DNA of 64,000 nt from Promethearchaeota archaeon (GTDB taxonomy: Archaea; Asgardarchaeota; Lokiarchaeia; Sigyniarchaeales; SOKP01), in assembly GCA_016926735.1 (NCBI GenBank), contig JAFGOA010000223.1:1-64000 (forward strand), written 5' to 3'. Numbering within the stretch: position 1 is the first letter of the stretch; every line of letters starts with the position of its first letter. The position numbers and the translations under genes are program-made. The notes beneath the pieces were generated by a model. It was not told the origin of the DNA and searched no databases. It worked only from the letters and a program-made list of their open reading frames with translations. Positions 5,348-42,883 of this stretch are shown here, piece by piece.

Positions 5348-5805
5348 ATGAAATTATTGAGTAATGATATTAAAAATAATGAATTAATGGATAAAAAATT
5401 CTCATATAGAGCTGAAAATATATCACCTCACTTGAAATGGGAAGATATTCCTGACAAAACCAAAAGTTTTACTATGATATGTAGTGATCCTGATGCTCCT
5501 GGAGGAAATTGGACGCATTGGACTATTATTAACATTCCTAAAAACGTTAATGAGTTTCCTCAAGGAAAAACTATTGCAGGTATGGAGTTAGAAAATGATT
5601 TTGGAAAAAAAGGATATGGAGGACCTTCAATTTTTGAGATATCCTCAAAATAGGGACCCCTCCCAGTGGAACTCATAGATATATTTTCAAAATCTATGCT
5701 CTTGATGTAGAGAGATTGGAAGGTGTAACCAAAAGAAACTTGGATGAAAAAATAAAAGAACATTCCATAGAGACTGCACAATTGATAGGATTATATAAAA
5801 GATAA
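5348..5805 (+). CDS. YbhB/YbcL (PEBP/Raf kinase inhibitor-like) protein, join(5348..5628,5658..5805), 142 aa after splicing
   Basis: SPHLKW, DPDAP, WTHW, NDFG..GYGGP in exon 1; PPSGTHRYIFKIYALD continues in another frame after a 29-nt insert; removing it gives GYGGPSPPSGTHRY and a stop at 5803-5805. Confidence 0.85.
5629..5657 (+). other. 29-nt BHB-like mRNA intron in the PEBP gene
   Basis: Outer helix GGAGG/CCTCC, central ACCT/AGGG (one A.G mismatch), bulges TCA and ACC, inner stem TTTTGAG/CTCAAAA; contains the in-frame TAG. Confidence 0.75.
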
Positions 5806-22704: not shown

Positions 22705-24906
22705 TTATTTATTCTTCTCAATTAGAAAGATACGATCGATTAATTGATTAATTATAGAAATAACATCTTCTGAGAATTCCTTTTGGTTTTTAATTTCATC
22801 TAAAATTTTTTTAAAATTATTAGTTGAGATCGATAAGAAATCCGTAAAGCTGTTTAATTTTGAAATTGCTGAATAAGATTGACCTTTAAATACATAACCA
22901 AATAAAAGTTCCCCTTTTGATTGAAGGATGATTAAATGTTCTCCATGTTTAATTCTGTCTATTGAACCTGAGGAAGAAAAAGCTTCTTTACCAAATAAAT
23001 TAATTGCCGAAATAAATCCTGCTATAAGTCCACTATCGTCCAAATTTCCATTTTGAAATGATTTACTATATAGACATTCTCCATTATCCGCTTTAATTAT
23101 TAAAAGATAAACAGGCATATCTAATTCATCTATATAATCGTTAATATTTGATCTAACCATCTTTGAAAATAAAAATTCATGACTGACATTTTCAAATCTC
23201 TCTTGTAGAGGTATATTTTGTTTTATCTTTTTTTCCCACTCATCTAAATGGGTGAGTAAAGAATCATGTTCATTTGAGATTTTACTTGCTAAAGCCCATA
23301 AACCATATTTAATTGCTGTATCTTGAGCTTTCGTAAGCATTGAACGAGTTGTATCAATGTCTAAATGAAGTAATGAGATTTTTGCCTTAAAAAAATAAGT
23401 CTCTGCTAAAACATCATAAAGATATTGAGATTTTGCAATTTCAAGCAGTTTGTCTGATAATTGTTCTATTTCTTGAAGAATTCTTTTATCCCCTGTTAAT
23501 TCTAGTTCACTTATTAGTACATCACACAGATTAGTCATTGCTTCAATTGTAATTTCATGATCAATAATTTCTTCTTCAGCAATACCTTTAAAGACAGTCC
23601 CTGCTTCCATTTTATCCATTAAACGATCACTTGACTTTAGAATAATAGCTTTATTCAGACGATATAATTGTGTAATCTGTTTTAAATCGGGATATTCTTT
23701 ACTAATTTCATGTAATTCTTTTAGGTAATGATCTAAATTTTCAATTTCGTTATTATTAACTGATAAATCAATAAGGTAATGATAGATTTTAGCTAATGAT
23801 ACTTTAAAATTCAGAAAATAAAAAATATGTACTTTTATTCCTTTGAGTAAATCCAAAGCTTCTAATAAATATCTCTTTGCTGTATTAAAGTCGCCTAGTT
23901 CTCCATAAATCTTTCCAATAGATGTTAAATAAGCAGGTTTTGATCTAAGATCTTCTTGTACTTCTGGAATTTTTAAAATCTTATTATAATATTCTAAACT
24001 TCTTTTAAGTTCACCTTTTTGATTATAGACATTACCTATACTAAAATAAGATTGGGCAATAAGATTCATATATCCTGTTTCTAATCTGTAATTCAAACTC
24101 TTTTTAAAATATTGTAATGCTTTATCTAATTGTCCTTTTTCAAAAAGACTATGACCAATTATATCATAACACAATGTAGAAGAATGTTTATAATCATTTG
24201 GCTCACATATTGCGAGACATTCCTCTGCATAGGAGATTGCATCCTCTAAATTCCTTAGATGATATTCAATACCTCCAAGATTAATAAGATTCCATATAAC
24301 TCCTGTTTCTACATTAAGTTCTTTTGCAATAATTAAACTTTCTTTTGAATATTTCCTTGCGGCTTTAAAATTTCCAATACTACCATTTGAAACACCTAGA
24401 TTAAGCAATGAAAAAATTAAACCAAATTTATCGTTAGTTTCTTCTCTTAATTTAACACTATCTTTAAAATGTTCAATTGCAATATAGAACTCAAATTTTT
24501 CTGCAAAGACTCTTCCCTTTAGAAAGTGAAAATATGCTTTTTTTTGTTTTATAATATCAATATTTTGATCTTGAATTTTATCCAATAAAAGCTCTCCACT
24601 TTCTATTAATCTTAATGTTTCCTCAAATAAGCCTAAACATACACTGTTTTCTGCTTTTCCTATAATAGCATTAATCTCCCATAAATATTGGTGTTTTGCC
24701 CTACACTCTTTTATCATTGATTTAGCTAGTTCAAGACCCTTATGAAATTCTCCTTTATCTAAGCAAATAAAAATTTCCAAATATTGAAAATAGAGTGTTT
24801 CTTCTTCATCTAAAGATCTCTCTTTTTTATATGAATTAAGTAATTTTAATGCTTCTTGGTATTCTCCATGGGAAATATATTTATCAATAATATTATTATT
24901 CGACAT
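22705..24906 (-). CDS. TPR-repeat protein with longin-like C-terminus (paralogue 6)
   Basis: Same architecture and motifs. Confidence 0.8.
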   Translation of the reverse strand: MSNNNIIDKYISHGEYQEALKLLNSYKKERSLDEEETLYFQYLEIFICLDKGEFHKGLELAKSMIKECRAKHQYLWEINAIIGKAENSVCLGLFEETLRLIESGELLLDKIQDQNIDIIKQKKAYFHFLKGRVFAEKFEFYIAIEHFKDSVKLREETNDKFGLIFSLLNLGVSNGSIGNFKAARKYSKESLIIAKELNVETGVIWNLINLGGIEYHLRNLEDAISYAEECLAICEPNDYKHSSTLCYDIIGHSLFEKGQLDKALQYFKKSLNYRLETGYMNLIAQSYFSIGNVYNQKGELKRSLEYYNKILKIPEVQEDLRSKPAYLTSIGKIYGELGDFNTAKRYLLEALDLLKGIKVHIFYFLNFKVSLAKIYHYLIDLSVNNNEIENLDHYLKELHEISKEYPDLKQITQLYRLNKAIILKSSDRLMDKMEAGTVFKGIAEEEIIDHEITIEAMTNLCDVLISELELTGDKRILQEIEQLSDKLLEIAKSQYLYDVLAETYFFKAKISLLHLDIDTTRSMLTKAQDTAIKYGLWALASKISNEHDSLLTHLDEWEKKIKQNIPLQERFENVSHEFLFSKMVRSNINDYIDELDMPVYLLIIKADNGECLYSKSFQNGNLDDSGLIAGFISAINLFGKEAFSSSGSIDRIKHGEHLIILQSKGELLFGYVFKGQSYSAISKLNSFTDFLSISTNNFKKILDEIKNQKEFSEDVISIINQLIDRIFLIEKNK

Positions 24907-25080
24907 TATTTTTGGTTATTTTTCTTTATTTGATTGAATTTTATTATCAATAATAAATATTGATTGAAAGTAATTTTATTATTTTAATCAATAAATAAAG
25001 AATGTAGACCTAGTGATTAATCAACATTCATTATTCCAATAATCTTATATAAAATATAAAAAATTTTGGATATATTATTT

Positions 25081-25665
25081 TTAGGATTTTAAATTATAGT
25101 TTCTGAATAAATCATAATATAATAGGTATACAATTAAAAAGTGAATAATTACACAACAAAAAAAACCCAAATAGATGAGAATATAAGAATTTAAAAATCC
25201 TATAAAAAAGGAATAACCAATATACAATGCAAGTATTTTTAAATTCTTAAAATAAAAAAAGATATGAATATGATATAATGAAAAAATCAGGCTAGAAGTG
25301 GTCATCGCTATCAATAAATTCAAATTTATTATTAAAAATCCCAAAATATAAAATCTAAATATTAATTCTTCCATAATCATTGTCAAAAGAAAACTTATAG
25401 TTACTAATTTAATTGAATTACTCATAAATCCATTAATTATCTCATGCTTTTTCATTATTTCATAATCTCTTATAGTAAAAACATACCTCACAATTAAAAA
25501 TCCCAAAACTAATAAGAAAGTCAAAAGAATTCCAATAAAAAAAATTTGAAATGCTTGTATTTTATTAAAAAATAAGAATTTTATATTAAATCCAAAAAAT
25601 AATGGAATTAATAGAATTAAGATAATACCTAATTTTAAGAATAATCTTAGATTTACAGATTTCAT
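25081..25665 (-). CDS. CPBP (CAAX/Abi) family intramembrane glutamic protease
   Basis: MEELIFR, FSLYH and a later conserved His in a hydrophobic protein. Confidence 0.8.
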   Translation of the reverse strand: MKSVNLRLFLKLGIILILLIPLFFGFNIKFLFFNKIQAFQIFFIGILLTFLLVLGFLIVRYVFTIRDYEIMKKHEIINGFMSNSIKLVTISFLLTMIMEELIFRFYILGFLIINLNLLIAMTTSSLIFSLYHIHIFFYFKNLKILALYIGYSFFIGFLNSYILIYLGFFCCVIIHFLIVYLLYYDLFRNYNLKS

Positions 25666-25695
25666 TAATTTTAAAGATTCTCCCTTTAATTCTTA

Positions 25696-26667
25696 TCATA
25701 AATTAAAATATTTATTTGGAAGTCCTAAATCTTTCATATAAATCTTATATGATCCCAATCTTCCATTATAATTTCCTGAACTTATCTTTATTAATCCCTC
25801 CATATCAATAATAGATTCAATTATTTCTTTCATAGATTTTTTCATAGCATCCAAACTTAAAGCATTAAAAACTATTTCAGGAACGGATTTAACTTCCGGA
25901 GGTATTTTAGATACATCTTGTGCTAACCTACTTTTTAATGTAGGGCAATATTGATGATTTGTTGAAGGACCTATCTCTGGAAAATTTGTTTCAGGTTTAG
26001 ACCCTGCAGAACATACACCAAAAATTGAACTTACATCATCGATTTTCTCAATAACACTTACAGCTTTTCTCCCTATTTTAATACCTGCCTTAATAGAATC
26101 ACAAAATAACCATAAATTACCTCCCATAATACCTTCTCCATAAGAAACTTCCTGTTGTATCAAAAAATCATGCCCCATCATAATTGGTATAGATATAAAT
26201 TGTCTCTTATATTTTTTCATGATAATTTCATATCCATCACCACAATGACCAACATTATCCATCACATCAAATTTGGATTTTAAATTCTCGGGATATGCGT
26301 CAAAAACAGCTGTAGTTGGAACTACGAGAATACCTTGTCTTACTCTTCTCCCTAAATATTTGTATAATTTTGATTTTGCTATCTCATCTGTTCCAGTAAC
26401 CCATAATTGGGTTATTACACCTTTCCTTCCGTCAACTGTTTCTTTTTCTGATAACCATTTTACTATACCACCTTCAGCATGCCCAAATACTGTTGATGGT
26501 AAAGCTGTAAAATTACACATTGCTTTATTTAAAAATAAATCGTCTTCAGCAGTAATCATAATCTGAACAGTTAATCCCTTAAATGCTTCACAAAAAGTAT
26601 CATCTATCATATTCAACAATTTTATTATTAATTTTTTATTTATAAAAAAAATTATGACATCACTCAA
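25696..26667 (-). CDS. ftr: Formylmethanofuran:tetrahydromethanopterin formyltransferase (likely start near ATG 26610)
   Basis: IDDTFCEAF, RVRQGILVVPTTAVFDA, GDGYE, GIMGGN, SAGSK, STNHQYCPTL, ISSGNYNGRLG. Confidence 0.9.
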   Translation of the reverse strand: MSDVIIFFINKKLIIKLLNMIDDTFCEAFKGLTVQIMITAEDDLFLNKAMCNFTALPSTVFGHAEGGIVKWLSEKETVDGRKGVITQLWVTGTDEIAKSKLYKYLGRRVRQGILVVPTTAVFDAYPENLKSKFDVMDNVGHCGDGYEIIMKKYKRQFISIPIMMGHDFLIQQEVSYGEGIMGGNLWLFCDSIKAGIKIGRKAVSVIEKIDDVSSIFGVCSAGSKPETNFPEIGPSTNHQYCPTLKSRLAQDVSKIPPEVKSVPEIVFNALSLDAMKKSMKEIIESIIDMEGLIKISSGNYNGRLGSYKIYMKDLGLPNKYFNL

Positions 26668-26948
26668 TATTCTCTAAAAAAGAATTCATAAGGTCATAAT
26701 TTATAAAAATATATAGAAAATTTTTGAATAGTAAATAAAAATTTTTTTTTTTCCAATATTTTTCAAATAGTATTTAACTAAATATCAAAATATGGTAATA
26801 GTTAGAAAAGTACACCTCAAACCTTTTTATATAGAAGGAATTTTTTTAAATAGAAACGTGTTTAAGTTGAAATTAACAATAAAAGACCTATAAAATAATT
26901 TTAAATTATTTTATTTTGGTTTACAATACAGTAAAAAGGTGATTATAG

Positions 26949-27824
26949 ATGGAACAAGAAGAAATATCTAAACATGCTATTAAACAAACTATAAATATCA
27001 CAAGTCCTTTTGTTGCAGAATTATTAATTGAAGAGGATTTAAAAATTGATTTGCATGATCTTTTAGAAAGATTAAATACTAATGGTAGAATATTTTTCGG
27101 ATTTGAAAATAATGATGGGTTTACAATTGGAGTATATGGGTATAAAGTTGAACTAAAAGAAGGTGTTTTTCATCCAGGATATATAATAACTCCAATAATT
27201 AAACCTTTAGATATAGACGAATATGATTCTAATGATTTGTCTATTATAAATCATACAAAATTTTTATGGCCAGAAGTAAAAGAAATAATTAAAATCGCAA
27301 TTGGTAAGATAATAATATCTGATTTATTATTTAATTATCTTGATTATAAAATTCGGTTTAATCTATTTAGGGAAGTTCTTTTATCAATTACTGGTTTAAT
27401 ACCTTGTTTAGCAATTCATTGGAAAGGTTCTCAAAAATTAACAAATCCATATTTTGAAAAGATTATCTCTCCTTCAACAAAAAAGCAAAGATTAAATCTC
27501 TTAGATCTTGCAGTAAATGTTCGAATGTTTAAAAAAGAAAAAAATGGTGATATTATTATGGATACTGTCGGTTTATCTAATTTTGGATTGCCAGATTTAC
27601 AATGTCACTATAAGAACTTACCACCAAAGGATATTGCTCAAATTTTATACTCATCTGCAGAATATATTTATCTAAATGGTGATGTAATAAAGGATGGTGA
27701 TACAATTCAAGGTATATCTGAAAATGATCATTGGATATGTCAACATGAAATAGCAATAGTTAACCCTAATAGGATTGTATTAGATATTAATCCAGGAACA
27801 GAATTCTCAAGTAGAGAACGCTAA
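26949..27824 (+). CDS. DUF4261-like protein
   Basis: VNVRMF, MDTVGLSNFGLPDLQCHY, IKDGDTIQG, R.VLDINPG C-terminus. Confidence 0.7.
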   Translation: MEQEEISKHAIKQTINITSPFVAELLIEEDLKIDLHDLLERLNTNGRIFFGFENNDGFTIGVYGYKVELKEGVFHPGYIITPIIKPLDIDEYDSNDLSIINHTKFLWPEVKEIIKIAIGKIIISDLLFNYLDYKIRFNLFREVLLSITGLIPCLAIHWKGSQKLTNPYFEKIISPSTKKQRLNLLDLAVNVRMFKKEKNGDIIMDTVGLSNFGLPDLQCHYKNLPPKDIAQILYSSAEYIYLNGDVIKDGDTIQGISENDHWICQHEIAIVNPNRIVLDINPGTEFSSRER

Positions 27825-28223
27825 ATAAAAATTATCTTTTTTAGCAAAATTAAAGAACATAAAAAGATCTTAATATCAAATCTTATTAAATCAATTATTT
27901 ATTCTTAATTTGAGCTACATATGATCTTAAAACTATAGCTTGCTATAAGTAAACAATTTCTTATAGAATAGATCGACTTATTTATCATAGAAAATTATTC
28001 TATTATGATTGGAATGATAACTTATTATAAGTGGGATCATATGATATGAAAATGATTTTCTAGAAAATCAAATTTGATTTGTATTATAATAGATACTAAG
28101 AAGTTTAAAAAAAAGGAGTTTCTTATGGATTAATGAATTTCTATTAAAACACAATTCATCACCTTCATAAGTAAAGGTGTTTTCTTGAGTAATAATAATG
28201 ATAAAATAAAAGGAGAATAAAAT

Positions 28224-29153
28224 ATGCCCGTTGGATTATTTTTATTTGAAATAGATGAGTCATTTGGACCTAATCTCATAGCAGATTATTATTTAATAGA
28301 TATAAAATTAAGCTCGGATATTTTAGAAAAACTAAATGAAAAACACATAGAAAAGAAATTAAATGAAGCTATAATTAAAAAAGAAGATATTAAATATTAT
28401 TCCAGCAAGTTAAATACTAAAAATCTTGAAAAAGAAAACCTCTATTTAGGATGTATTTTACGGAATGATGAAAATCTACTATCATTTAAGAGTTTATTTG
28501 CAAATATTCAAAATCAAGTGATAGAACATTATAATCCAAAAGAAAAAAAAAAAATGCAGAATTTTTTAAAAGAGACAATTACTTCTATTTTAAACCTAAT
28601 TGAAAAGTTAAAAGAACCTAAGATTATAAAAGATACAATTAATGAAAAAACAAAAGTAATGCTTGATGAAGGAAAACTTCAAGAAGCAAAAGAATTAATC
28701 AATTTGGGTGAAGCTATTCCTAATGAATTATCTGAATTAGTAAAAGAAGCAGATAGATTATTTAATGAAGGAGAATATAAAAAATCAAAAAAAAAATTTT
28801 TAAAAGCTGCAGAACAAGCAGAATTAATCCAAGAAATTGAAATTGTATCTTTTTTAACAACAAAAGCACAAAATATTGGAAATTATCCAGATCTAATAAA
28901 AGAAAAAGAGAAAATCCATAAAGATATAAAAAAATTCATTATTGATAATGAAAATAAAGAATTTAGAGTTTATAAGTCATTAACACCGAACATAGAGAGA
29001 TTGATTGAAATTTCAAATTATTTTGAAGATCTTGAAAACTATGACTTTTTAATAAGCCTTTTAGAAAATATCGAAAATGCTATTACACTTTATGATAAAT
29101 TATTAGAAATCGATTATGATATTATTCAAAAAATAAATAAAATAAAAGAATAA
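28224..29153 (+). CDS. Hypothetical protein: N-terminal longin/uDENN-like region, helical C-terminus
   Basis: MPVGLFLFEIDESFGP start resembles the uDENN/longin N-terminal hairpin; SD AGGAG upstream; fold is inferred. Confidence 0.55.
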   Translation: MPVGLFLFEIDESFGPNLIADYYLIDIKLSSDILEKLNEKHIEKKLNEAIIKKEDIKYYSSKLNTKNLEKENLYLGCILRNDENLLSFKSLFANIQNQVIEHYNPKEKKKMQNFLKETITSILNLIEKLKEPKIIKDTINEKTKVMLDEGKLQEAKELINLGEAIPNELSELVKEADRLFNEGEYKKSKKKFLKAAEQAELIQEIEIVSFLTTKAQNIGNYPDLIKEKEKIHKDIKKFIIDNENKEFRVYKSLTPNIERLIEISNYFEDLENYDFLISLLENIENAITLYDKLLEIDYDIIQKINKIKE

Positions 29154-36692: not shown

Positions 36693-37970
36693 TTAAGAAA
36701 TACTAACCGATTCTAATAAAAATTGTTTATACGAAGTTTGGAACATGTCCCTTATTCGCACAGGCTGAAACCAGTAGCCTCTATCGGATAGATCTTGAAT
36801 AAAACCATCTCCGACTACTTTTCTGAGAATATTTAACGCTCCATTTACATCAGCATTAAGAATGTAATTCGAGCCTTTAAATATTCCCCGTTTTATCCTT
36901 TTACCAACATAATGTTGATGTTTCTGTATTGGTTCTAAATCTAATGAACTACATTTTGACGTGTAGGATTCATTGACATCATGAACTTTAATTCCTACAA
37001 GGCGAGCTTTATAAGTTATCATTTGTTTAAGCTTTTGAATGGGGATATTCAAAAAATTTTGGTTATTTCGTTTGCCCATTCGAATATTTTGTTTTATATT
37101 ATCTAATTTACCCAAACAAATGTGTCCTATCTGTTTTTCCAAACAATAACCGACAATGAATTGAGCTGTTTTATGCAAATAATCCTTTACAATTGAGTTT
37201 CTCCTTATTGTAATCTTATCGAGTCTATCAGTCCACTTTAGTTCTTGTTTATCCTTAATAGAAAAAAATCTTGCTTTCTGTTTATTCCATTGCCGATTAA
37301 TTGATTTTAGAATTCTCCCTGAAATAATAATTGGTTTAGTATTCATATTCTCTGCTGTAGTGATTAAATTATTCAATCCAAAATCGATTGATAAATATCT
37401 CGTGGTATCTAATTTTGACGTTTCTATTTCTTTTTTATATATTATTTCAATTTCATAAAATCCTTTTCGTGGCAAAATCCTTATCTGTTGATACTCTCCA
37501 AAACGCTTGTTTTTATACGTAGGAATTTTAATTTCAATAGGGTTTTCAAACTCAGGAAATAGTTCTTTAAAAAGGTGAGACATTGTAAGAACGATTTTAT
37601 CCTGTTTAATCTTGCTATTCTGGTTAGTAAATATCAAAATGTTGTTACAACCTTTCTTGTATTTAGGTGGTCTCGGTCTTCCATTGAATCTTTTCCTATC
37701 TTTTTTCCACTCCTTTATAGCATTGAAGAAACTTTTCCAGTTTTTATCCAAGACTTTAAGAATTTGTTGAGAGGTTTGAGCTTTTAACAATTTATATTGG
37801 CTATATTTTTTCATTATGAAATCTAAATCGTTATATCGAAGCCAATTCTCTAGATGAAAGAAATCCTGTCGAATATACCAATTAGCTTGATTATAAAGCT
37901 TCTTAGAAATTGAACAGAGCACATCTAAATGCTCAGTTCTCAGAGTCCTGAATTTATATACTAATTTCAT
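36693..37970 (-). CDS. tnpB: RNA-guided endonuclease TnpB with rearranged RuvC-II
   Basis: SKKLYNQAN, SIDFGLNN, DYLHKTA, ICLGK, VNESYTSKCS, LNADVNGALNI. Confidence 0.93.
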   Translation of the reverse strand: MKLVYKFRTLRTEHLDVLCSISKKLYNQANWYIRQDFFHLENWLRYNDLDFIMKKYSQYKLLKAQTSQQILKVLDKNWKSFFNAIKEWKKDRKRFNGRPRPPKYKKGCNNILIFTNQNSKIKQDKIVLTMSHLFKELFPEFENPIEIKIPTYKNKRFGEYQQIRILPRKGFYEIEIIYKKEIETSKLDTTRYLSIDFGLNNLITTAENMNTKPIIISGRILKSINRQWNKQKARFFSIKDKQELKWTDRLDKITIRRNSIVKDYLHKTAQFIVGYCLEKQIGHICLGKLDNIKQNIRMGKRNNQNFLNIPIQKLKQMITYKARLVGIKVHDVNESYTSKCSSLDLEPIQKHQHYVGKRIKRGIFKGSNYILNADVNGALNILRKVVGDGFIQDLSDRGYWFQPVRIRDMFQTSYKQFLLESVSIS

Positions 37971-38778: not shown

Positions 38779-39870
38779 ATGAAAAAAATACGATATCCTA
38801 CTGAAAATGAAAAAGAAGGGATTACTAAGCTAGAAAATTTGATTAAAAATTATCCATTTCATTTTTTGAAGGTTTATAACGAATTTAAACAAGATCAAGA
38901 ATTCCCTATGCTTCAAATAATTATTTCTTGTAAGATGAAAGGATTTTCTATTCCCTCTTCAAATAATTATATGCGAAATATAATGCGATATAGAGGATTA
39001 AATACAGATGATATCAATCGATTTGAAAATTTAGTTATTAATCATCTAAATTCTTTAATAGAGGAAATAGGATATACAGAAACTAAAGAATATTTAGAAA
39101 TGAATAATTCATTTAAAGAACTTAATGTGTGGATTGAAGAAATGTATAAAAGATTAAGTTATTTTGATAATGATGGTGGGTGGAATAAAGTTGGAGTGGA
39201 TGACTACCAAAGAATCGAAGAAATTTTAAAAAGAGAAAAAATATATAGAGGGACAGAAAACGATGTAAAGGTTAAATTCAAACAAATTTTTGGTTTTCAA
39301 GATTTAGTTATAAGAGAAGAAACATACAAGAATCTTACTACTTCAGAAGAATTTGATGAGATTATTTCGAATATATTAATGTTACTCGGAAAGGGATCAT
39401 ATAAATGCAATGGTGGAAAGGTTAGATTAATTGGATCTTCAGTAGAAGATATCGAAGAAAGTTGCATCTATTCTTCCCTTCAAAAATATCCCAGAGTATT
39501 GAAAAATATGGATCAAGCATTGGAACATAAAATTAAGAAGAAATGGAATGAAGTAGCATTGTATTGCTGTAAAGCTATTGAATATTTTTATAAAATAATA
39601 TTAGGTAATAAAAAAAAATATGAAAAATTAACACTTAGATCATTAACAGAAGCAATAAGAAGAAATCAAAATAAATTATTAAAAATTGATGATACTGTGT
39701 GGCTGGGAGTTGATAAATTATTACAATCTTGTGTTAATTTAGTTGGGACAATAAGAAATTCCAGAGACTCAGGTCACGGAAATGATCGAGATGTTGAAAA
39801 ATGGGAAAGTCAAATGGTATACAATTATACAATCGTATTATTAAGAACTCTAATACAAATTATAAAATAA
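38779..39870 (+). CDS. Hypothetical protein with C-terminal HEPN/Abi_C-like domain
   Basis: A..CCKAIE helix and IRNSRDSGHG (Rx6H) motif; SD AGGTGA upstream. Confidence 0.6.
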   Translation: MKKIRYPTENEKEGITKLENLIKNYPFHFLKVYNEFKQDQEFPMLQIIISCKMKGFSIPSSNNYMRNIMRYRGLNTDDINRFENLVINHLNSLIEEIGYTETKEYLEMNNSFKELNVWIEEMYKRLSYFDNDGGWNKVGVDDYQRIEEILKREKIYRGTENDVKVKFKQIFGFQDLVIREETYKNLTTSEEFDEIISNILMLLGKGSYKCNGGKVRLIGSSVEDIEESCIYSSLQKYPRVLKNMDQALEHKIKKKWNEVALYCCKAIEYFYKIILGNKKKYEKLTLRSLTEAIRRNQNKLLKIDDTVWLGVDKLLQSCVNLVGTIRNSRDSGHGNDRDVEKWESQMVYNYTIVLLRTLIQIIK

Positions 39871-39987: not shown

Positions 39988-40413
39988 ATGAGCGAACAAT
40001 GGAAACATGCTGATTTAGCCTCTCTTATTGGAAAATTAGCATGGATTATTGGTGTTATTTGTGGTGTGATTCAATTAATTATTGGAATTGCATATGGATC
40101 TTTCACCTTATTAGGTACTCTCTATATTGTTCCAATAAATATATTTTGGGCGATTGGCGGTGTGATTATTATAATAATATCCCTTTTAATTATTAAACCC
40201 CAATTTTCAGATAAATGTGCAAATAAGGAATGGGACGCACTATATGATTGGGCATTAGATCTTGGAGGAACTAAAATATGGTGGATGTTAATTTGGATTG
40301 TTGTATTTATTATTTTTGGCTGGGGATATAGTGCTGGTCCAATTATAATAGTCTTTCTTCTTCTTTTCCTTGCTGGTCCAGAGAATACTAAATGGGACAA
40401 AAATAAAAAATAA
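39988..40413 (+). CDS. Small membrane protein
   Basis: About four hydrophobic segments, Trp/Gly-rich. Confidence 0.75.
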   Translation: MSEQWKHADLASLIGKLAWIIGVICGVIQLIIGIAYGSFTLLGTLYIVPINIFWAIGGVIIIIISLLIIKPQFSDKCANKEWDALYDWALDLGGTKIWWMLIWIVVFIIFGWGYSAGPIIIVFLLLFLAGPENTKWDKNKK

Positions 40414-40558: not shown

Positions 40559-40689
40559 TTATAGTCCTTTAGGGCCATTTTCATATATTTTATATGCTTC
40601 ATCAACAGATGTATTATCATGAACAATTGCTCTTACAGCTTTGATCATACCAATAGGACTATCACTTTGAAAAATATTTCTTTCCATAT
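40559..40689 (-). pseudogene. Displaced duplicate of the aldolase last exon ([42 protein letters not shown])
   Basis: 131 nt colinear with 42039..42169; 20 nt differences, 37/42 aa identical. Confidence 0.9.
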
Positions 40690-40705
40690 ATTCAATTACG
40701 ATATT

Positions 40706-41854
40706 TTATTTTAATTCTTCAAATTTCTTTCCTTTAAGTTGCTTATGCCAATAATGTGGTTTTGGTTTTTTAATATTCCATTTTAAACATATTTCATTAA
40801 CAATCCTTGGATATACATTATATATTTCACATATTTTTTTAATTGGCATTTTCCAAACTAATTTTATCAGTTCATCCTTTTGAATGGAGTCTTCAAAAAT
40901 ATTTTTAGATGCAACTCTAAAATATTTCCTCTTTCGCGATAAACTATCTGGAAAATTATCTAACATTTCATTAAATAGTTTTCCGCCCAAACTAAAATAA
41001 TAATTCCCTTTACCATCGGGATTGATTTTATGAGGAATATTAAATCTTTTTTTTATTTCTTCTAAAATTAATTTACTACCAATATGAAATTGATTAGTCC
41101 CTTCTTTTCCATCACCATCAAAAAAACCTAGTAAAAATGCCAGATCTAATTCTCTATTATCTAAATTAGGAAATCTTGTTCTTTTTTTACTACTTTTTAC
41201 ATAACCTAATGTGTATAGATCACTTTGAACATTAGAATTTTTAAAAGTAATCCTTACATATGTTCTTAGTTCATTTTTAGTCATTTTTGTTCGATATTTC
41301 TTGTATTTAGGATTTAAACCTATCGCTTTACAATACCTATCTATTAAAATTTCATCATTTTTGCTTAATTCAAGTTTTAATTCTCCTCTTTCTCCTAAAT
41401 AAACTTCAGCCCACAATATTCCAAGCCAATAAGCTTTATTTTTTGAATTAATTTTTTTAAAGTAATTTATATTTAAATCAAGATGATAGTTTAAAACTTT
41501 TAGACCTTTTTTTCTAGATATTGGTAATTCTTCATTTGATTCTTGGTATTTCTTAATAAATTTTAATGTATTCTTCCCACGTAAGCCAAAATAAGCTTTA
41601 ATATTATTACTCCATTCGTTTAATTCATCTAAAGCAATTTTAAATTGAGGATTCACTTTAATATTTCTTATAATTCTTTTTATACGTCTTTCATAATCAC
41701 ATAATATAAGACTTAATTTTTTATAAGATAAACTTCCATTATGAATTATTTTAACTTTAAAACCATTAATAAATAAGGTGGATGATACAATCTTAAAAAT
41801 CTCGTTTCTTAAATCTTTTATTAATTCTGATGCAGAATAAGTAAGTCTTCTCAT
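40706..41854 (-). CDS. Free-standing double-motif LAGLIDADG homing endonuclease
   Basis: KAYWLGILWAEV and LAFLLGFFDGDG motifs; basic protein with an HTH-like C-terminus; no intein splicing motifs. Confidence 0.85.
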   Translation of the reverse strand: MRRLTYSASELIKDLRNEIFKIVSSTLFINGFKVKIIHNGSLSYKKLSLILCDYERRIKRIIRNIKVNPQFKIALDELNEWSNNIKAYFGLRGKNTLKFIKKYQESNEELPISRKKGLKVLNYHLDLNINYFKKINSKNKAYWLGILWAEVYLGERGELKLELSKNDEILIDRYCKAIGLNPKYKKYRTKMTKNELRTYVRITFKNSNVQSDLYTLGYVKSSKKRTRFPNLDNRELDLAFLLGFFDGDGKEGTNQFHIGSKLILEEIKKRFNIPHKINPDGKGNYYFSLGGKLFNEMLDNFPDSLSRKRKYFRVASKNIFEDSIQKDELIKLVWKMPIKKICEIYNVYPRIVNEICLKWNIKKPKPHYWHKQLKGKKFEELK

Positions 41855-42038
41855 TCCTCAATTATTTTGTTGTGTTTATTTCTGGTCTTTTTTCTATTTT
41901 TATCTAATTGAATTACTTCTCTAGTTTAAAGAATCTTTATTGATTTATATGGTTTTTATTAATATATATTTTAATAGAGTCTGCAGATTTTTTTAAATAA
42001 AATATTTATATTATAACAAGAAAAAAAAAATAAAAAAA

Positions 42039-42883
42039 TTAAAGTCCTTTTGGACCGTTTTCATATATGCTATATGCTTCATCAATAGACTTATTCTCAT
42101 GAACTATAGCTCTTACTGCTTTAATCATGCCAATAGGGCTGTCACTTTGGAATATATTTCTTCCCATATTTGCGCCTATAATTATAAAAAATAGTTATAG
42201 TCTACGCCGACAGCTCCTTTATCAATAGCATTCCTTGCCATAATTAAAGCATCACGCTCCTCAATCTTCTTTCCACCAGCTATTACAACCGGTACTGGAG
42301 CGATAGAAGTGACTTCGTCGAAGTTCTCACAATAATATGTTTTTACAAAAGTGGCACCTATTTCTGCTGCCATTCTACTTGCCATACCCAAATATCTTGC
42401 ATCTCTAACCATTTCCCGTCCAACTGCTGTTACTGCTAAGACTGGAATACCATAATCTTGTCCCCAATTTACAATCTTAGTTAAATTCATTAAAGATTGT
42501 TTTTCAAATTCACCACCTACAAAGATGGAACAGGTAATTGCTGAAACATTTAATCTTATCGCATCTTCAATTGTAACATTTATTTCTTCATTTGAAAGTT
42601 CTTTTAACATACTTGCTCCGGCAGATACTCTTAGAACGATAGGTACATCAAAATCCGGTGAAACACAATTTCGAAGCATACCTCGTGTTAACATTAAAGC
42701 ATCAGCATATTCAAAAAGGGGTTCTAACTTCTTAAAAGATTTTAACATTCCTGGGATATTGCCAAAATATTCATGAGTATGTATTAATTATACATATTTT
42801 CCATGATCGACAGCAAGCATGACGCAATGCCCAGATTTAGGTTTAATTATTCGGGATAATCTATTTTGCATTCCCCAATCCAT
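42039..42883 (-). CDS. lsrF: LsrF-like / DhnA-type class I aldolase, join(42883..42800,42769..42202,42169..42039), 260 aa after splicing
   Basis: [21 protein letters not shown] (spliced), [42 protein letters not shown] (spliced); exon lengths 84+568+131=783 nt. Confidence 0.9.
42170..42201 (-). other. 32-nt BHB mRNA intron 2 of the aldolase
   Basis: Central GCGT/GCGC, bulges AGA and AAA, inner stem CTATAACTAT/ATAATTATAG; cleavage after the second bulge nt gives GTA GAT ATG GGA (VDMG). Confidence 0.88.
42770..42799 (-). other. 30-nt BHB mRNA intron 1 of the aldolase
   Basis: Central CATG/CATG, bulges GAA and AAT, inner stem TATGTAT/ATACATA, outer TTGCTG..GAT/ATT.TGGCAA; in-frame TAA inside; splicing gives CAT GGA TAT TTT (HGYF). 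Confidence 0.9.

Follow-up and report, generated by a model that had tools for sequence, protein, structure and literature searches.

The lsrF-like gene in the window, the whole 64,000-nucleotide stretch of Lokiarchaeia DNA analysed here (source contig C50 of a near-complete metagenome-assembled genome with 4.8% contamination), probably carries a homing cassette: the end of exon 2, a bulge-helix-bulge (BHB) mini-intron, a replacement exon 3 with its terminator and a free-standing LAGLIDADG gene, whose product would cleave intron-less alleles and against which the intron would confer immunity. That a resident exon has been displaced and that the intron spreads horizontally is very probable from the comparative evidence; cleavage at the junction and immunity through the intron are likely, going by sequence. 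The cassette would thus offer a concrete and testable route by which BHB mini-introns spread between species, and the locus appears to show intron gain caught midway in a coding gene, where donor and recipient can be seen alongside the empty site, the conversion tract and the stages of decay. With an Asgard host, this would be intron gain in the closest prokaryotic relatives of eukaryotes.

Layout of the locus

The gene is read on the minus strand (Table 1), and a preliminary description of this stretch had its order right to the base: intron 2, exon 3, the LAGLIDADG open reading frame, 16 nt and a second exon 3. The gene and exon positions given there also stood, and only the label “aldolase” needed refinement, to LsrF-like (NCBIfam NF006081, DeoC/DhnA fold). 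With both introns removed, an open frame of 260 aa results with either exon 3. For the T-rich tract that follows exon 3, a terminator-like match was scored at 42056–42043.

Table 1. Features of the lsrF-like locus, in window positions
Feature	Position	Strand	Basis
Native downstream gene, 141 aa; marker of empty-site synteny	39988..40413	+	G002 alignment
Native exon 3, now displaced; acts as right homology arm; MERN in place of MGRN	40559..40689	-	131 nt; colinear with G002
Right cassette junction, 16 nt	40690..40705	-	
Putative free-standing two-motif LAGLIDADG endonuclease, 382 aa	40706..41854	-	Model fold, motifs
Putative T-rich terminator-like tract 3' of exon 3 and nuclease gene leader	41855..42038	-	Sequence; 184 nt
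Replacement exon 3, cassette-borne, functional, MGRN intact	42039..42169	-	131 nt
BHB mini-intron 2 at GVD/MGRN, 32 nt; predicted to disrupt the target	42170..42201	-	Fold, covariation
Left co-conversion tract, approximate (foreign exon 2 end)	42202..42289	-	Divergence vs G001/G002
lsrF exon 2, left homology arm	42202..42769	-	Spliced ORF; NF006081
BHB mini-intron 1, 30 nt, in-frame TAA; outside the cassette	42770..42799	-	Fold
lsrF-like exon 1, resident	42800..42883	-	Spliced ORF; nearest are same-genus G001/G002

The two exon 3 copies differ at 20 nt, distributed as originally claimed over 13 synonymous and 5 non-synonymous codons (dN/dS about 0.06), and their similarity runs from the first base of exon 3 (ATATGG), exactly at the splice junction as had been noticed, through the stop codon and some 30 nt of the T-rich tract beyond it (160 nt, 81%). 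Of the five amino-acid differences, four fall at positions that are variable or conservative. The change of MGRN to MERN in the distal copy, also pointed out earlier, is its single clear lesion, since the affected glycine is invariant: DMGRN is found in 116 of 116 functional alleles.

Downstream of the cassette, synteny with G001 is broken by an IS200/IS605 TnpB-like open reading frame (36693–37970) and by a 363-aa open reading frame with a weak Abi_C match (38779–39870). In another genome (G133, L177), an intact intron-less gene is preceded, at a distance of about 2 kb, by a partial second lsrF that consists of the 3' half.

The mini-introns

Intron 2 folds into a canonical BHB, with a 4-bp central helix (GCGU/GCGC), two 3-nt bulges (AGA and AAA) and an AT-rich hairpin, and the reading frame is restored when each bulge is cut behind its second base. 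In an alignment of 17 alleles, 93% of the cells pair and two-sided changes are found at 8 of the 14 pairs; none of 500 shuffles matches this, and slid registers give 27–42%. The host genome has two genes for tRNA-splicing endonuclease subunits (PF01974, above the cut-off), and we infer from the fold that intron 2 is removed from the mRNA by splicing. Its sequence is identical at 28 of 32 positions to the intron of G018, from another genus, versus 23 of 32 for the same-genus G002.

Intron 1 occurs in 6 of 110 alleles, spread over three genera, and on two contigs, independently of intron 2 and of the nuclease; no nuclease for it was found in the flanks examined. A third BHB-like insert, of 30–36 nt, is seen in lsrF at about codon 194 (IAGG/K) in G002, G035 and G005 (loci L003, L019/L209 and L028/L219), and an AT-rich hairpin is visible at 5618–5663 of the window.

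Alternative splicing onto the distal exon was considered and rejected: the 16-nt spacer preceding that exon makes no central helix with exon 2, and the region does not fold. A recent intron half was likewise rejected for the spacer, which overall resembles intron tails no more than by chance (P 0.16). A 7-mer within it pairs in register with the 5' arm of a G035-type intron (0.3–0.5% in background and shuffles; post hoc), which is probably a chance match.

The displaced exon and the position of the break

The proposal that a replacement 3' exon displaces the old one is borne out in relatives. In six of seven, the distal copy is closer than the proximal exon 3 to the intron-less sister allele (distal and proximal identities: G007, 97 and 73%; G122, 95 and 77%; M040, 95 and 89%; M043, 85 and 78%; G152, 87 and 76%; G077, 97 and 86%), and in the seventh, M034, the two tie at 92%. 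In most pairs, the synteny with the sister picks up again at the remnant and continues. This better match, coupled with the synteny resuming beyond, makes the distal exon the displaced resident. In the host genome the signal is weak but consistent: the stretch from the distal exon through the downstream 141-aa gene aligns colinearly to G002 (76%), and the diagnostic sites of the distal copy favour G002 by 10 to 6. Given this count, and since G002 itself has intron 2, we can only infer the recipient state at this locus.

All eight remnants start at or downstream of the junction, at 0, about 12, 36, 40, 47, 52, 69 and 70 nt into exon 3, with that of the window the sole untrimmed one, and exon 2 sequence was found in none of the eight; the left tracts, in turn, extend variable distances into exon 2. 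Because the remnants never reach exon 2 and the left tracts vary, these eight loci would bracket the break at the intron site.

Later stages are found as well. The remnant is lost in M033, M036 and M220, the nuclease is inverted in G116, and the intron-only alleles of G141 and G145 are those of G122 and G152 minus the nuclease. In G077, the nuclease is separated, with putative cargo: on contig C32 (L212/L039), the lsrF-clade nuclease has 613 aa with a long N-terminal extension and stands, ahead of the exon 3 remnant, amid several kb of other genes (a prenyltransferase-repeat gene, a trypsin gene and an AAA_15 ATPase pair). This cassette may have gathered cargo.

Linkage and horizontal spread

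Close homologues of the nuclease (53–65% identity) adjoin lsrF. In our unbiased survey set of 110 family alleles, intron 2 is present in 12. The nuclease clade is the direct neighbour of five of these; for a sixth (G077) it is found on a separate contig together with an exon 3 remnant, and six have no nuclease nearby. The clade is beside none of the 90 intron-less alleles with a flank of at least 1.5 kb. Counted from the nuclease, intron 2 is present at 15 of the 16 distinct loci with a known junction (G077 being split over two contigs), and at none of the 16 does the open reading frame lie inside the intron. The preliminary description had allowed that homologous endonucleases might prove unlinked to this gene; the close clade is tightly linked to it.

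The one exception, L224, has the nuclease and exon 3 tail of L223 (the nucleases are identical) behind an intron-less exon 2 of another lineage. The join to this exon 2 falls in the first 60 nt of exon 3, and natural resistance of the allele or a chimeric assembly could account for L224. Separately, a distant paralogue (29%) converges on the intron-less lsrF of G098 (L201:1551–2837).

On the tree of the 5' part of exon 2, the 17 intron alleles require 14 changes, at least 12 of them forced by strong branches, and a single clade of intron alleles is rejected by the AU test (p-AU 1e-53). A near-identical intron-less sister exists for most intron alleles, so that the empty alleles which the preliminary description had advised looking for are found in close sisters. 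Along the 5' gene, identity to the sister stays level, but it drops towards the close of exon 2 and within exon 3, beyond what is seen in control pairs (Mann-Whitney P 3e-4); this drop and the tree agree with the earlier proposal that mini-intron, exon and nuclease form a mobile block. In Mantel comparisons, intron sequence follows the nuclease (r 0.59) more closely than the host gene (0.23). The distances between nucleases and those between hosts are correlated too (r 0.38), so that transfer would be mostly among nearer kin; statistics across kin overstate, and the argument rests on the sister-pair comparisons.

In the left co-conversion tract, the host genome is the odd one out against G001 and G002 at 15 versus 2 sites, and upstream of it at 21 versus 47 (Fisher P 4e-5; boundary set post hoc). 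Compared with the two same-genus alleles, roughly the last 90 nt of exon 2 are foreign, with the best match to the nuclease-bearing M033. Past the junction, 15 of 17 intron alleles are uniform over the 14 nt that follow the D codon, versus 17 of 98 empty ones.

The LAGLIDADG protein

The putative nuclease has a helical N-domain (residues 1–106), a core (about 129–313, with E150 and D248) and a C-terminal helical, HTH-like part. It matches Pfam LAGLIDADG_3 weakly (E 0.011), and NCBIfam has no family for it. The AlphaFold model (pLDDT 78) predicts for the core a LAGLIDADG fold of two alpha-beta-beta-alpha-beta-beta-alpha domains with paired motif helices: residues ~129–313 superpose on PI-PfuI with a Z of 13.7 and on I-DmoI and I-Tsp061I with a Z of 12.6 (rmsd 2.6–3.5 Å over 150–170 residues). 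E150 is invariant, and the D248 position acidic, in 17 of 17 sequences, and both align with the catalytic acids of I-Tsp061I. In LAGLIDADG motifs a glycine usually follows the acid; motif 1 here reads WAEV, with a valine after the acid, for which reason the enzyme may be nicking or otherwise atypical. The 16 copies of the clade have no stops and a dN/dS of 0.15–0.29 (about 0.2), with synonymous sites near saturation among them, and the open reading frame is under purifying selection.

Proposed mechanism and alternatives

We propose four steps. When donor meets recipient DNA, the nuclease would cut the intron-less lsrF at or next to GVD/MGRN. In the second step, which the footprints show, repair transfers to the recipient a part of exon 2 that varies in length, together with the intron, the replacement exon 3 and the nuclease; the recipient's own exon 3 is left behind the nuclease and decays there. 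The intron would now split the recognition site and leave the carrier uncut, while the host tRNA-splicing endonuclease and a ligase would excise it from the mRNA. Finally, in a step that is partly shown, repair ending in the proximal exon 3, or recombination between the exon 3 copies, would lose the nuclease and give an intron-only allele, so that the mini-intron would spread both with and without its nuclease. One named enzyme and one target of about 25 bp make the model testable. A self-target was looked for and not found: even at 5 mismatches, the 23-nt intron-less junction does not occur in the host genome. A viral carrier was considered and set aside: the intron-less junction pattern is absent from IMG/VR, which has distant paralogues only (best-segment identity ≤37%).

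The most serious competitor, which we consider unlikely, retains the gene-end-replacement cassette and makes the intron a passenger: the cut would fall nearby, and immunity would come from the synonymous differences in the carried exon. Such immunity is a live alternative because the L224 nuclease sits behind an intron-less allele and because paralogues at SNF2 (including C95), acetoacetyl-CoA-synthetase-like and thiC-like genes replace gene ends without a boundary intron; the uniformity of the 14 nt past the D codon in intron alleles would also fit. Fungal atp6 cassettes and intronless homing in phage T4, to which this alternative can be likened, reportedly work through immunity by sequence differences. 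A passenger would, however, hardly be expected from the retention of the intron at 15 of 16 loci across long divergence or from remnants bounded exactly by the intron site, and L224 loses weight if it is a resistant allele or a chimera.

Far less probable than a passenger intron is the alternative named in the preliminary description, decay of a large endonuclease-containing BHB intron of the I-DmoI type, in which the nuclease would once have sat in the intron loop before the distal exon, with a mini-intron allele later recombined upstream. Introns of this kind are known in archaeal rRNA (PMC4496867), and the pairing of the spacer 7-mer with the G035-type 5' arm, post hoc as it is, would be in keeping with one. 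This origin is disfavoured because the open reading frame is never within the intron, at any of the 16 loci; furthermore, the distal copies are recent, recipient-derived and variably trimmed, the spacer has neither a central helix with this exon 2 nor more than chance likeness to intron tails, and the nuclease of G116 is inverted.

A domesticated protein, either a WhiA-like regulator or a splicing maturase, with the duplication incidental, is yet more improbable: the combination of LAGLIDADG with a C-terminal helical domain resembles the WhiA architecture, and the strong purifying selection and atypical motif 1 would suit such a role, but the patchy terminal distribution with conversion footprints, the six intron alleles without a nuclease nearby and the retention of both catalytic acids all speak against it. 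A strain-chimera misassembly, a concern already voiced in the preliminary description and conceivable in a metagenome-assembled genome with this contamination, is scarcely credible, since six other independent assemblies share the layout, on one contig each and with differing remnant lengths; the distal copy is, besides, lesioned at an invariant residue, and synteny resumes past it.

Relation to known systems

The homing cassette appears to be a new combination of known parts, those of I-PogI, phage collaborative homing and fungal gene-end replacement. The closest mechanism known would be that of I-PogI in the 16S rRNA gene of Pyrobaculum oguniense (Nakayama 2003, as summarised in PMC4496867), which, according to that summary, cleaves the point at which a hairpin BHB intron lacking an ORF is inserted next to it, and co-converts that intron. 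An archaeal LAGLIDADG enzyme and an adjacent ORF-less BHB intron are common to both; as far as the summary goes, however, I-PogI is encoded within an rRNA gene, by an intron of its own at a distance of 8 nt, whereas the lsrF nuclease is free-standing and outside a protein-coding gene, and the lsrF cassette, unlike I-PogI, displaces the native gene end with a replacement that it carries along.

In phage collaborative homing (PMC2988022, PMC10448857), a free-standing nuclease cleaves where an ORF-less intron inserts, and nuclease and intron are co-inherited. The lsrF locus likewise has its nuclease outside an ORF-less intron and inherited with it, but on an archaeal chromosome and with a 32-nt intron predicted to be protein-spliced instead of self-splicing group I introns in phage genomes, and it adds a LAGLIDADG enzyme and the gene-end duplication. 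The latter has its counterpart in fungal mitochondria, in Allomyces atp6 and Glomus atp6/atp9/cox2/nad3 (PMC3630166), where a foreign 3' end and an endonuclease are followed by a displaced native 3' end nearer to that of the sister species. The same order of foreign proximal end, nuclease and sister-like distal end is found here; the fungal cassettes are organellar and their boundary is not a BHB mini-intron, whereas that of lsrF is.

Short BHB introns in an archaeal protein-coding gene are known from crenarchaeotal cbf5 pre-mRNA (PMC2738675), where the intron is ancestral with losses, its splicing is shown experimentally and no nuclease is involved; the lsrF intron, in contrast, was gained repeatedly, and its splicing is predicted from sequence. 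From BHB introns of the I-DmoI type, with the endonuclease ORF in the loop, the locus differs in having the nuclease outside the intron at all 16 loci. A 2026 preprint on Asgard tRNA introns describes repeated gains, gives no general route for them and does not mention homing (10.64898/2026.10.13.758758). In the literature covered, which includes few subscription papers, cbf5 is the archaeal coding gene for which BHB introns are described; we found nothing there on Asgard mRNA introns or on Asgard free-standing LAGLIDADG cassettes, nor the combination of mini-intron, gene end and nuclease in an archaeal coding gene. As the locus also shows, split genes and foreign 3' ends affect Lokiarchaeal gene calls and gene trees.

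Paralogous cassettes

The search for other LAGLIDADG genes beside duplicated gene ends, suggested in the preliminary description, was productive. Paralogues with 35–45% identity are widespread in the family, and several flank duplicated gene ends without a boundary intron, at SNF2, acetoacetyl-CoA-synthetase-like, thiC-like and other genes, which shows that the nuclease family does not need introns. One lies in the same genome (G000 C95, ~24330–28860; L213:2830–7356), where a 36%-identical paralogue stands between an SNF2 helicase and a second helicase end, with no intron; a further SNF2 cassette, L057, has the same layout, and the remnants of both start at DRAYRIGQ. Paralogues with duplicated 3' ends of other genes, again with no intron seen at the boundary, are found at L064, L081, L088 and L072, where the genes look by eye to be acetoacetyl-CoA-synthetase-like, hotdog-fold-like, thiC-like and a small protein after a P-type ATPase.

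We tentatively suggest, as a possibility somewhat short of an even chance, that a family of free-standing LAGLIDADG nucleases in Lokiarchaeia uses gene-end replacement with BHB mini-introns as immunity, and could be a general engine of protein-spliced intron gain in Asgard mRNA (perhaps tRNA) genes, leaving nuclease-free introns after pop-out. tRNA genes are neighbours of a few distant paralogues only. L091 (~900–2120) is a possible tRNA-targeting cassette, in which a paralogue is flanked on one side by a tRNA-like gene that has an intron and a CAT anticodon, and on the other by a second copy of a similar tRNA 5' end.
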